This document shows, in pieces, positions 654 to 24,564 of a DNA stretch of 25,393 nt. Within the stretch, counting starts at the first letter, position 1, and each line of letters begins with the position of its first letter. The notes below the pieces were generated by a model, which saw only the letters and a list, made by a program, of their open reading frames with translations, was not told the DNA's origin and ran no database searches. The DNA lies in contig NZ_JMCB01000003.1 in the NCBI RefSeq assembly GCF_000737315.1, forward strand, positions 1 to 25,393, given 5' to 3'. This DNA is from Hyalangium minutum. Its GTDB lineage: Bacteria; Myxococcota; Myxococcia; Myxococcales; Myxococcaceae. The position numbers were made by a program, and so were the translations under genes.

Positions 654-703
654 GAAGCGGGGCAGGGCGGGAGTGGTTTCACTCCGACCCGCGAGGAAAT
701 GTC

Positions 704-2805: not shown

Positions 2806-2829
2806 TCCGGACCGCACTAGGAGATGACG

Positions 2830-3174
2830 ATGGAGTCCACTGCACATCTGCGCTACGTCCGCATGTCGCCCCGGAAGCTCTCCACGGTGGCTGCGCTCAT
2901 CCGCGGCAAGCCTGTTGAGGCCGCGCTGAACATCCTGAAGTTCACCCCCCGCGCGGCGGCCGCCCCGGTGGCCAAGCTCATCAAGAGCGCCGTGGCCAAC
3001 GCGACGGACAAGTCCAAGGGCCAGGTCGACGTGGATACTCTCTACGTGAAGACCATCTCCGTGGACCAGGCCCCCACCCAGCGCCGGTACATGCCGCGCG
3101 CCATGGGCCGGGCGACCCGCATCAACAAGAAGAGCGCCCACGTTCACGTGGTGCTCGCCGAGGCCAAGAAGTAG
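2830..3174 (+). CDS. rplV: 50S ribosomal protein L22
   Basis: [39 protein letters not shown] aligns with the L22 N-terminus. The ORF track starts at 2824. The RBS AGGGAG (2818-2823) sits flush against that ATG but 6 nt from the ATG at 2830, so 2830 is preferred. Confidence 0.92.
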
Positions 3175-3208: not shown

Positions 3209-3871
3209 TTGGGACAGAAAGTTCATCCGATCGGGTTCCGCCTCGGTGTCATCAAGACCTGGGACAGCAAGTGGTTCGAGCACAAGAACTACGCCCAGTG
3301 GCTGCATGAGGACATCCGCATCCGCGAGTTCGTGAAGAAGTCGCTCAACCACGCGGGCGTCTCCAAGGTGGAGATCGAGCGCGCGGCCAACAAGGTCAAG
3401 GTCAACGTCCACACCGCGCGTCCGGGTATCGTCATCGGCAAGCGCGGCGCGGGCATCGAGACGGTGAAGAAGGACCTGCAGCAGTTCACCAAGAACGAGG
3501 TCTTCCTCAACATCGTCGAGGTCCGCAAGGCCGAGACCGACGCGCAGCTGGTGGCCGAGAACATCGCCACGCAGCTCGAGCGCCGCATCGCTTTCCGCCG
3601 CGCCATGAAGAAGGCGCTGCAGACGGCCATGAAGTTCGGGGCCAAGGGCATCCGCGTGGCCTGCTCGGGCCGCCTGGGCGGCGCGGAGATGGCGCGCTAC
3701 GAGTGGTACCGCGAGGGCCGCGTGCCCCTGCACACCCTGCGCGCTGACATTGACTACGGCTTCGCCGAGGCCAAGACGACCTACGGCAAGATCGGCTGCA
3801 AGGTCTGGATCTGCCGCGGTGAGGTTCTGCCGGGTAAGGGCGGCCAGGCCCCCCTGCCCACCAACCGCTAG
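3209..3871 (+). CDS. rpsC: 30S ribosomal protein S3
   Basis: 220 aa, [23 protein letters not shown]... (KH domain). TTG start with RBS AAGGAG 7 nt upstream. Confidence 0.96.
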
Positions 3872-3926: not shown

Positions 3927-4346
3927 ATGCTTCAGCCTGCTCGTACCAAGTACCGCAAGATGCACAAGGGCCGGACCCCCGGCCGGGCCTATCGCGGCAG
4001 CGACCTCACCTACGGTGAGTACGGCCTCATGTCCCTGCAGCCGGGGTGGATCACCTCGCGCCAGATCGAGGCGGCCCGTATCGCCATGACCCGCCACGTG
4101 AAGCGCGGCGGCAAGATCTGGATCCGGGTGTTCCCGGACAAGCCCATCACCAAGAAGCCCGCCGAGACTCGTATGGGTACCGGTAAGGGTGGCGTGGAGT
4201 ACTACGTGGCGGTGGTGAAGCCGGGCCGCATCCTCTACGAGATGGAGGGCATGACGGCCGAGGTGGCCACCAGCGCGCTGAAGCTCGCGCAGGCCAAGCT
4301 GCCTGTGCTCACCAAGATCGTGAACCGCAGCGCGCTGTCGCTCTAG
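3927..4346 (+). CDS. rplP: 50S ribosomal protein L16
   Basis: 139 aa, [16 protein letters not shown]..., canonical L16. Confidence 0.96.
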
Positions 4347-4368: not shown

Positions 4369-4581
4369 ATGGCGACTGCGAAAGAGTTGAGGGAGTTGGC
4401 GGCGGAAGACCTGCAGCGGCGCGCGGATGAGCTGCGCGGCACGCTGTTCCAGGACCAGCTGAGCATGCGGACGGGCAATCTGGACAGCCCCACCTCGCGT
4501 ACCCAGCACCGCAAGGACCTGGCGCGGATCCTCACCGTGCTGACCGAGAAGAAGCGGGCCCCCGAGAAGACGGATAAGTAG
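4369..4581 (+). CDS. rpmC: 50S ribosomal protein L29
   Basis: 70 aa, MATAKELRELAAEDLQRRADELRGTLFQ..., L29 helical protein. Confidence 0.92.
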   Translation: MATAKELRELAAEDLQRRADELRGTLFQDQLSMRTGNLDSPTSRTQHRKDLARILTVLTEKKRAPEKTDK

Positions 4582-4661: not shown

Positions 4662-4979
4662 ATGGCTGAAGAGACCCAGACCACCTCCGCTCCAGAGACT
4701 TCCTCCCGTGGCCGTCCCAAGACGCGCGTGGGGATCGTCACCTCGAACAAGATGCAGAAGACGGTGGTCGTCACCGTCTCGCGCCGTGCGCCGCACGCCA
4801 AGTACGGCAAGATCTTGAGCATGCGCGAGAAGTACAAGGCGCACGTCGAGGACCACGACTACCCGAAGAAGATCACCATCAACGAGGGTGATCGCGTCCG
4901 CATCGCTGAGACCAAGCCGGCCTCGAAGGACAAGCGGTGGCGGGTGGTCGAAGTGATCGAGAAGAGCAAGAACGTCTGA
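4662..4979 (+). CDS. rpsQ: 30S ribosomal protein S17 (with about 20-aa acidic/Ser-Thr-rich N-terminal extension)
   Basis: The core [21 protein letters not shown]...WRVVEVIEK matches S17. The N-terminal [21 protein letters not shown] is extra. An alternative GTG start at 4728 would give the short form but has no RBS. Confidence 0.88.
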
Positions 4980-5921: not shown

Positions 5922-6587
5922 ATGGCTGACGAGAAGAAGGCCGACCAGGCCGAGAAGAAGGAAAAGAAGGAAAAGAAGGGCCGCAAGAAGGAAGACGTCA
6001 AGAAGGCGGGATTTGCGGCCAATATTGAGGAGGGCCTCGAGGCGAAGCCGGCGCGGCTGAAGCTGCGCTACCGCAAGGAGGGCGTCCCTGCTCTGATGAA
6101 GGAGCTGAGCCTGAAGAACCCGTACCAGGTTCCCAAGCTCGAGAAGATCGTCGTCAACATGGGTCTGGGCGAGGCGCTCGCCAACAACAAGATCCTGGAG
6201 TCCGCGGTGGACCAGCTGGGCGCCATCACCGGCCAGAAGCCCATCATCACCCGCGCGCGCAAGTCGATCGCGAACTTCAAGCTGCGCCAGGGCCAAGCCA
6301 TTGGCTGCGCCGTCACGCTGCGCGGCGACCGGATGTACGAGTTCCTGGACCGCCTCATCTCCGTCGCGCTGCCGCGCGTGCGTGACTTCAAGGGCGTGTC
6401 CCCCAAGGCCTTCGACGGGAAGGGCAACTACACGCTCGGCGTCCGCGAGCAGATCATCTTCCCTGAGATCAACTACGACCAGATCGAGAAGGTGAAGGGG
6501 CTCAACATCAGCTTCGTCACCACCGCGCGCAACGACGAGCAGGGGTTGGCGCTCATGCGTCACTTCGGCATCCCGTTCCGTACGTAA
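5922..6587 (+). CDS. rplE: 50S ribosomal protein L5 with a 43-aa Lys/Glu-rich N-terminal extension
   Basis: From [21 protein letters not shown]... onward the product matches L5. The preceding [28 protein letters not shown]... has no counterpart in typical L5. No alternative in-frame start lies near the conserved core. RBS AGAGGA is about 9 nt upstream of 5922. Confidence 0.88.
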
Positions 6588-13970: not shown

Positions 13971-14417
13971 ATGGCTGAAGAAGTCCAGACCCCTGCCGCC
14001 GCCACGACGACCCCCGAGGGTGGTGGCGAGACCGCTGCGGCCAAGAAGGCCAAGCGCAAGGGCAAGAAGAACATCCTCAACGGCGTGGTCCACATCCAGT
14101 CCACGTTCAACAACACCATCATCACGATCACGGACGTGTCCGGGAACGTGATCTCGTGGTCCTCGGCGGGCGCCCGTGGCTTCAAGGGCAGCCGCAAGTC
14201 GACCCCGTTCGCCGCGCAGGTTGCCGCCGGTGACGCCGCCGCCAAGGCCATGGAGCACGGCCTGAAGACGGTGACGGTGCTGGTGAAGGGCCCTGGCGCT
14301 GGCCGCGAGTCCGCGCTGCGCGCCCTGGCCGCCGCTGGCCTGAAGATCACCCTGATCCGCGACGTGACGCCCATCCCGCACAACGGCTGCCGTCAGCCGA
14401 AGCGCCGCCGCGTCTAA
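13971..14417 (+). CDS. rpsK: 30S ribosomal protein S11 (about 20-aa Ala/Thr/Lys-rich N-terminal extension)
   Basis: ...[30 protein letters not shown]..., S11 core. Confidence 0.93.
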
Positions 14418-16393: not shown

Positions 16394-16523
16394 AAGAGGG
16401 GGCCCCTCCCCATAAAAGTGGGGGCCTATTGGCAATAGCGGACCTCGGTGTCGAGTCCGCTCTTCCCACCCGGTACCTGATACGGCCGGTGTGGTGGAGC
16501 CGAGAGGCTCCGGAGTCACGCTC

Positions 16524-23649: not shown

Positions 23650-24564
23650 ATGCCCCCCATGAGCTTCCGTTACTCCGACGAGGTGCGTCGCGCCCTGGAC
23701 ACGAAGGCGCCGCTGGTGGCGCTCGAGACGAGCGTGGTGGCCCAAGGCCTGCCTTACCCGGACAACCTCCGCGCCGCGCGCGCCTGCGAGGAGGCCGTTC
23801 GCAGCGCCGGTGCCGTGCCCGCTCCCATCGCCGTGGTGGATGGCGAGGTGTGGATCGGTCTCGAGGAGGCCGCCATGCTCCGGCTCGCCGAGGGCAAGGA
23901 GAAGCTGATGAAGCTCGGCTCGCGCGATCTGCCCGTGGCCATCGCCTTGAAGGCCTCGGGGGGCACCACCGTGAGCGCCACCTGTGAGCTGGCCGCCGCC
24001 GCCGGCATCCGCGTCTTCGCCACCGGCGGCCTGGGCGGTGTCCACCGGGGCGTCAGCGAGCACTGGGACATCTCCCAGGACATTGGCGCGCTGGCCCGCT
24101 ACCCCGTCGCCGTGGTGTGCGCCGGCGCCAAGTCCATCCTGGATCTGCCCAAGACGATGGAGGCCCTGGAGACCGCGAGCGTGCCCGTCATCGGCGTGCG
24201 CACCAGCGAGCTCCCATCCTTTTATAGCCGCAGCTCGGGCATGCCGCTGGAGCACCGGGTCGAGGACGCCGTCACGGCCGCTCGCATCGTCCGCGCCCGG
24301 GGCGAGCTGGGGCAGGGGGGGCTCGTCTTCGCGCTTCCGCCACCCGACGAGGCGGCCCTGCCTCGGGAGGACGTGGAGCGGCACATCGCCTCCGCGCTCG
24401 CCGAGGCCGAGCGCCAAAGTATTCGAGGCAAGGCCGTCACCCCGTTCCTGCTCGGGGACATGGCCCGGCGCACGGGAGGCCAGAGCCTGAAGGCCAACCT
24501 GGCCCTCCTGGCCAACAACTCGCGCTTCGCCGGAGAGCTTGCCGTCGCTTTGACGCGGGGATGA
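23650..24564 (+). CDS. psuG: Pseudouridine-5'-phosphate glycosidase (IndA/YeiN family)
   Basis: 304 aa, collinear with PsuG: ...PLVALETSVVAQGLPYP...GGTTVSATCELAAAAGIRVFATGGLGGVHRG...VVCAGAKSILDL...GKAVTPFLL...SLKANLALLANN. The ATG at 23659 is an alternative start. Confidence 0.85.
   Translation: MPPMSFRYSDEVRRALDTKAPLVALETSVVAQGLPYPDNLRAARACEEAVRSAGAVPAPIAVVDGEVWIGLEEAAMLRLAEGKEKLMKLGSRDLPVAIALKASGGTTVSATCELAAAAGIRVFATGGLGGVHRGVSEHWDISQDIGALARYPVAVVCAGAKSILDLPKTMEALETASVPVIGVRTSELPSFYSRSSGMPLEHRVEDAVTAARIVRARGELGQGGLVFALPPPDEAALPREDVERHIASALAEAERQSIRGKAVTPFLLGDMARRTGGQSLKANLALLANNSRFAGELAVALTRG

Follow-up and report, generated by a model that had tools for sequence, protein, structure and literature searches.

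The window, by which the whole analysed stretch of Hyalangium minutum DNA (25,393 nt, 25.4 kb) is meant, begins with the final 52 codons of tuf (stop codon TAA at 159-161) and continues into the S10 operon. The features are the following:

3-161, + strand: 3' end of tuf (EF-Tu domain 3; Pfam GTP_EFTU_D3, E 3.6e-17)
174-206, + strand: hairpin directly 3' of tuf (CACCCTGACGGCCA / TGGCTGTCAGGGTG)
221-249, + strand: promoter-like TTGCAA-17 nt-TACATG, then a GC-rich discriminator, read by eye
250-344, + strand: nearly invariant leader of about 95 nt, 5' of rpsJ
345-653, + strand: rpsJ (uS10, 102 aa; Pfam PF00338 Ribosomal_S10, E 1.7e-38)
654-703, + strand: rpsJ-rplD spacer, 50 nt, the usual rplC slot in most bacteria
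704-1327, + strand: rplD (uL4, 207 aa; Pfam PF00573 Ribosomal_L4, E 6.2e-60)
1324-1617, + strand: rplW (uL23; Pfam PF00276, E 2.1e-31)
1650-2495, + strand: rplB (uL2; Pfam PF00181, PF03947)
2518-2805, + strand: rpsS (Pfam S19, far above cut-off)
2824-3174, + strand: rplV (Pfam L22, far above cut-off)
3209-3871, + strand: rpsC (Pfam S3, far above cut-off)
3927-4346, + strand: rplP (Pfam L16, far above cut-off)
4369-4581, + strand: rpmC (Pfam L29, far above cut-off)
4662-4979, + strand: rpsQ (Pfam S17, far above cut-off)
23650-24564: pseudouridine-5'-phosphate glycosidase gene

The first gene of the operon, rpsJ, is located downstream of the str operon (fusA/tuf) and ends with the stop codon TAG at 651-653. 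It is not followed immediately by rplC. The nine Pfam-assigned ORFs between 704 and 4979 are arranged as rplD-rplW-rplB-rpsS-rplV-rpsC-rplP-rpmC-rpsQ, with rplW overlapping the rplD stop by 4 nt. The rplD product was 100% identical to the NCBI entry '50S ribosomal protein L4 [Hyalangium minutum]'. The window shares 10 of the 11 genes of the E. coli S10 operon, with order and orientation unchanged; rplC is the missing one.

The original prediction placed an L4 gene with its signature 50 nt past the S10 stop at 653, with rplC absent from between rpsJ and rplD and no L3 in the 183-nt tuf-rpsJ spacer. All of this agreed with the ORF coordinates and the Pfam assignments; the length of the tuf-rpsJ spacer was exact. 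No L3 match was obtained in the six frames of the window with tblastn using E. coli L3 (E<=10), and neither the window nor 24 related loci gave a match with the L3 sequences of B. subtilis, E. coli and Thermus. As the absence of rplC is a discrete gene-order fact, no chance model is applicable to it.

The spacer at 654-703 is, with its 50 nt, too short for a gene. Its only element is the Shine-Dalgarno sequence GAGGAAA at 693-699, ending 4 nt 5' of the rplD ATG. Neither a promoter nor a terminator was called in the spacer by the scan, and its folding was no better than that of shuffled sequence (z -0.85 to +1.1). In 10 relatives with a homologous spacer of 50-52 nt, the ends (GAAGCGGGG... and ...CACTCCGACCC.CGAGGAAA) are kept and the middle is variable. 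Two other readings of the spacer were considered and rejected. A regulatory hairpin was dismissed, since the folding energy was no better than that of the shuffles and the small stem was not kept in the relatives. A decayed rplC, as a remnant or pseudogene within the spacer or its flanks, was dismissed because no L3 similarity was found. A distant lineage copes with a gap of only 2-8 nt at this position, which indicates that no special element is needed in the spacer. The rplD gene is simply the second cistron of the operon.

The tuf-rpsJ spacer (162-344) has more content. In an RNAalifold alignment of 8 Myxococcaceae loci, several stem pairs of the hairpin 3' of tuf had compensatory changes. 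The hairpin carries no T-run and was not called by the terminator scan; it is likely an inter-operon terminator or stabiliser. The TTGCAA-17-TACATG element is conserved in the same 8-locus alignment and was missed by the consensus scan owing to a G at position 6 of the -10 hexamer. It is regarded as a candidate S10-operon promoter. In the leader at 250-344, which includes the Shine-Dalgarno sequence AAGAGG of rpsJ at 329-334, nearly all the columns are identical in the 8 loci, and the upstream hairpin region is variable. The whole spacer is a candidate for an S10-operon regulatory leader. This conserved leader differs from the L4-responsive, L4-binding S10 leader RNA of the E. coli type, which was not detectable here: Rfam returned no match in 100-760 at the gathering thresholds or at E<=5. 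PMC3616713 describes most E. coli ribosomal-protein leaders as restricted to Gammaproteobacteria. The sole Rfam match in the window at gathering threshold was the L17-Actino-Proteobacteria leader (RF03132) at 16438-16494, just 5' of rplQ, with 38.1 bits versus 34.9.

Some further observations were made on the ribosomal proteins of the window. The uL5 protein (5922-6587, 221 aa) is extended at its N-terminus by about 40 aa rich in Lys/Glu. Likewise, uS11 (13971-14417, 148 aa) and uS17 (4662-4979, 105 aa) have N-terminal extensions beyond what we take to be the usual lengths. The lengths of all three are similar in related loci. Among the solved ribosome structures, the best match of uL4 was 4wce with 195 bits; this and the other closest entries are presumably Firmicutes ribosomes, and the groups scoring 122 and 113 bits are taken by us to be E. 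coli and Thermus, respectively. There is no PDB entry for a Myxococcus ribosome.

The order tuf-rpsJ-rplD-rplW-rplB was found in 10 of 10 loci with an identical S10 protein among the matches listed, and tuf was immediately 5' of rpsJ in loci L001-L010. The ten identical-S10 loci include the finished chromosome of Stigmatella aurantiaca DW4/3-1 (CP002271.1) and contigs matching H. versicolor and H. rubrum entries. Their rpsJ-rplD gap was 50-52 nt, and no Ribosomal_L3 domain was detected within 10 kb in any of the ten. When the complete genome of Archangium violaceum (CP069396.1) was counted, the gap in the 11 related loci was 50-53 nt; in this genome, tuf-S10-L4 is located at about 5.547 Mb on the + strand with a gap of 53 nt. 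Myxococcus xanthus DK1622, which belongs to a different genus, has the same tuf-rpsJ-rplD order as the window (MXAN_3298 is tuf). According to the supplementary tables of PMC6791715, its S10 is MXAN_3299 (3854626-3854934) and its L4 is MXAN_3300 (3854988-3855611), resulting in a gap of 53 nt. The 50-nt gap of the window is within the 55 nt taken as the upper limit of a Myxococcota-type operon.

The S10 homologues listed were all at least 93% identical and therefore gave no taxonomic depth. The L4 matches listed reached down to 80% identity. After the identical protein, the best named matches of the window L4 were from other Hyalangium, followed by Pyxidicoccus, Myxococcus, Archangium, Aggregicoccus and Vitiosangium, with identities of 83-94%; an L4 assigned to Myxococcus (P0058) was 84% identical. 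In the lineage represented by L011-L015, whose L4 is 75-85% identical, rpsJ is followed by rplD with a gap of 37 nt. In L016-L024, which are MAGs labelled 'Myxococcales bacterium' with L4 only 52-56% identical to that of the window, the gap is shortened to 2-8 nt. The taxonomy of these deep lineages follows the submitters' labels and the sequence divergence.

Two separate observations concern S10 itself. In L011 and L012 (Myxococcota-like, S10 93% identical), rpsJ comes immediately after fusA, and a tuf copy between the two is lacking. Two metagenomic S10 homologues, P0121 (166 aa) and P0122 (141 aa), are longer than 102 aa and, with 261 and 223 bits, outscored the 100%-identical S10 match P0123 (207 bits); the search gave no identity for either. 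Both may represent S10 sequences, duplicated or misjoined, on short contigs.

Of the three alternatives in the original prediction (L3 encoded elsewhere, a deletion or rearrangement at the locus, a wrong assembly), the first was supported by the relatives, as rplC was stand-alone in every one examined; its guess of Myxococcota was also right. In M. xanthus, L3 is annotated as MXAN_3370 (3913660-3914304), at a distance of 59 kb on the downstream side of rpsJ, and its neighbours are MXAN_3368, a hypothetical gene, and nfsA, MXAN_3371 (PMC6791715 supplementary tables). In A. violaceum CP069396.1, it is located at 7,342,547-7,343,230 on the - strand, 1.8 Mb from tuf-S10-L4. How far rplC lies from the S10 operon thus varies among the relatives, from 59 kb in M. 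xanthus to 1.8 Mb, with inverted orientation, in A. violaceum. These are the only two genomes in which the S10-L4 adjacency and the isolated L3 were seen together.

Two scans extended the survey. A high-GC DNA pattern of the L3 motif G-x-[ST]-K-G-[KR]-G-F-x-G was run against metagenome contigs. Of the 120 loci returned, nearly all had S10 and/or L4 beside L3; the GC-rich contigs L050 and L126 carried L3 with neither neighbour. The L3 profile of these two contigs retrieved NCBI-named L3 of Nannocystaceae bacterium, Paraliomyxa miuraensis, Myxococcales bacterium and Myxococcaceae bacterium. The scan of species-representative genomes with the Myxococcaceae-type L3 P0352 resulted in at least 23 Myxococcaceae/Myxococcota loci and at least 57 outgroup loci. 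The Myxococcaceae/Myxococcota loci included Vitiosangium sp., Archangium lansingense, A. gephyra, Cystobacter fuscus (including the complete CP043491.1) and MAGs. Among the matches listed, S10 or L4 was present within 10 kb of L3 in none of the 23 Myxococcaceae/Myxococcota loci, whereas the order S10-L3-L4 was present in 55 of the 57 outgroup loci. With the outgroup loci as an internal control, the contrast proved to be lineage-specific.

Altogether, a stand-alone rplC was found in M. xanthus, A. violaceum, C. fuscus, A. gephyra, A. lansingense, Vitiosangium and 17 MAGs. The clusters of Archangium, Cystobacter and MAG L3 proteins contained no Hyalangium or Stigmatella L3, and no L3 match was obtained in the viral contigs scanned. 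From the relatives and the essentiality of L3, we infer that rplC lies elsewhere in H. minutum itself. The relocated L3 is full-length: C. fuscus L3, P0352, P0283 and L194 matched the TIGR03625 equivalog over model positions 1-202 with 246-277 bits versus a cut-off of 142.9, and the relocated rplC products are annotated as L3 in public records.

The surroundings of the stand-alone gene are also shared. Homologues of MXAN_3367 and MXAN_3368 are located 5' of rplC in Cystobacter, Archangium and Vitiosangium. Homologues of the nfsA-D/gltA-D type are located 3' of it in 17 of the 23 loci among the matches listed (L145-L167, L226, L229), usually at a distance of 0.2-4 kb, and M. xanthus is alike, with MXAN_3370 followed by nfsA-H. 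The Nannocystaceae-type L3 is isolated too and has rlmE/ftsJ next to it (L050 and the 11.1-Mb contig L225). Other breaks of the stable S10 cluster next to rplC are of a different kind. In the Verrucomicrobiota MAG L204 and the metagenome contigs L052, L069, L128 and L142, L3-L4 occurs with no S10 upstream, so that rplC remains with rplD and rpsJ is apart, whereas in Myxococcota rplC alone is gone and rpsJ joins rplD.

The Myxococcota L3 carries the motif THG(T/V)HE(Y/F)xRHxGxIG (P0352, P0271, P0283, L160), and the Myxococcaceae type also carries RVYPNKK(M/L)PG(Q/H)YG. In contrast, typical bacterial L3 has SHGS..HRxPGSIG and RVFKGKKMAGHMG at those positions. The L3 types of Nannocystaceae and Myxococcaceae share about 50% identity and are about as far from each other as from other phyla. 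In a neighbour-joining tree of 133 L3 sequences, which carries no support values and whose sampling is biased by the search patterns, one clade comprised the 39 isolated L3 of myxobacteria, with L194 as its sole other member. A single ancient event would be consistent with this tree. Myxococcaceae L3 also seemed close to Clostridia L3, but this was rejected as a by-product of the peptide patterns used in the scan (e.g. NKKMPGQY).

The L3 gene of L194 (9992-10651; MAG 'Bdellovibrionota bacterium' ABC1.69, GC 0.44) is likewise isolated; cysS and uvrB precede it and an OmpA-like gene follows it, and its product has the myxobacterial-type motif THGTHEFFRHGGSIG. In the Bdellovibrionales MAG L215, the order is the canonical S10-L3-L4.

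The stand-alone rplC of C. fuscus is preceded by a promoter-like TTGACC-16-TACATT with an upstream TG, 97 nt 5' of the GTG start codon; this was the one site found by the promoter scan versus 0.1 expected from the shuffles. The site and the leader following it are within 9877-10000 of L160 (CP043491.1). The leader, a 5' UTR of about 100 nt, is highly conserved in eight Archangium, Cystobacter and Vitiosangium loci (L160, also L150-L154, L157 and L162). Two hairpins were predicted in it, with compensatory change in only two pairs, and base pairing of its 5' end (GCCGCTTCC) across the GTG start codon was also predicted. The leader matched no Rfam family. It may be an L3-specific leader.

In the M. 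xanthus RNA-seq data (PMC6791715), rplC belongs to developmental expression group 6, as do the S10-operon genes. The mRNA values at the seven time points were 1043, 690, 2260, 2682, 1766, 1565 and 1456 for rplC, and 1455, 522, 2213, 2779, 1893, 1921 and 1803 for rplD. Thus, rplC closely tracks rplD over the time course at near-equal levels. The expectation that uncoupling L3 from the operon would change the stoichiometric control was not borne out by these profiles. The argument from the autoregulation of the operon by L4 through the S10 leader in E. coli does not transfer to this locus, as such a leader was not detectable with Rfam. Since rplC tracks rplD in M. xanthus, the stoichiometry appears to be held by the parallel regulation of separate promoters.

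The absence of rplC from its slot could result from an assembly artefact, in which the gene between rpsJ and rplD had been collapsed or lost. The only point in favour of this is the prior expectation of rplC at that position. The junction and a homologous spacer occur in more than 25 independent assemblies produced by different groups and methods, including the three complete chromosomes CP002271.1, CP069396.1 and M. xanthus DK1622, and the probability of an artefact is negligible. A recent, strain-specific deletion or rearrangement in H. minutum is opposed by the same assemblies and deserves practically no credence either. The 50-nt spacer has no rplC remnant, its ends are conserved across genera, and other Hyalangium genomes (L001, L005) are also devoid of rplC in the slot. 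Moreover, the junction is common to lineages with L4 only about 53% identical, and the event is therefore ancient and not strain-specific. As the related genomes have exactly this rpsJ-rplD junction with rplC conserved elsewhere, the arrangement is a lineage-typical trait and not an anomaly of one genome.

A displacement is harder to set aside, since it leads to the same final gene order as a relocation: a second L3 would have been gained by horizontal transfer or duplication, and the native copy in the S10 operon lost later. The distinctive motif of Myxococcota L3 is in favour of this, as is the Nannocystaceae-Myxococcaceae distance comparable with that to other phyla. However, no donor lineage stands out. 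The nearest outgroups among the matches listed, Clostridia and Deinococcus, have 50-56% identity, and as they were picked by the 8-residue patterns of the scan they are not evidence of a source. In addition, the isolated L3 form one clade in the neighbour-joining tree, as predicted by vertical descent after a single event. A displacement is thus considered improbable, though clearly less so than an artefact or a recent deletion.

The locus is, with high confidence, an ordinary Myxococcota S10 operon from which rplC was anciently relocated to a stand-alone site with its own putative promoter. According to this relocation model, an ancient rearrangement would have taken rplC out from between rpsJ and rplD. 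Transcription of the S10 operon probably starts at a promoter within the tuf-rpsJ spacer, and rplD would be translated from its own Shine-Dalgarno sequence, 50 nt past the rpsJ stop. L3 would be produced from the stand-alone rplC at another chromosomal site under its own putative sigma-70-type promoter, and its supply is presumably kept in step at the promoter level and not by co-transcription, as the M. xanthus RNA-seq data suggest.

A broader reading is put forward more tentatively, with somewhat more doubt than trust. The removal of rplC may have been a single ancient event shared by all Myxococcota (Myxococcaceae and relatives as well as the Nannocystaceae type) and at least one low-GC 'Bdellovibrionota' lineage. 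The gene would have its own promoter and a structured leader, possibly with L3-specific feedback, and in the Myxococcaceae type a stable link to the envelope gene cluster of the nfs/glt type.

The arrangement can already be seen in the publicly annotated genomes of M. xanthus DK1622 and many other myxobacteria. The literature found on rplC together with Myxococcus, Myxococcota or the S10 operon consisted of marker-gene lists in which the gene order is not discussed; one such list records rplC as conserved in all the Myxococcus genomes studied (PMC4765838). There is nothing wrong or unusual in the window, which represents the normal state of the lineage.

The finding is of modest interest. Few gene orders in bacteria are as well conserved as that of the str-S10-spc-alpha cluster, and for this reason an exception on the scale of a phylum is worth recording. 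Pipelines that require 16 syntenic ribosomal proteins per contig always miss uL3 in Myxococcota bins. The rpsJ-rplD junction could act as a rare-genomic-change marker, and as a deep phylogenetic marker if a single ancient event is true. Myxococcota also provide a natural case in which to study how the stoichiometry of L3 would be attained without co-transcription.
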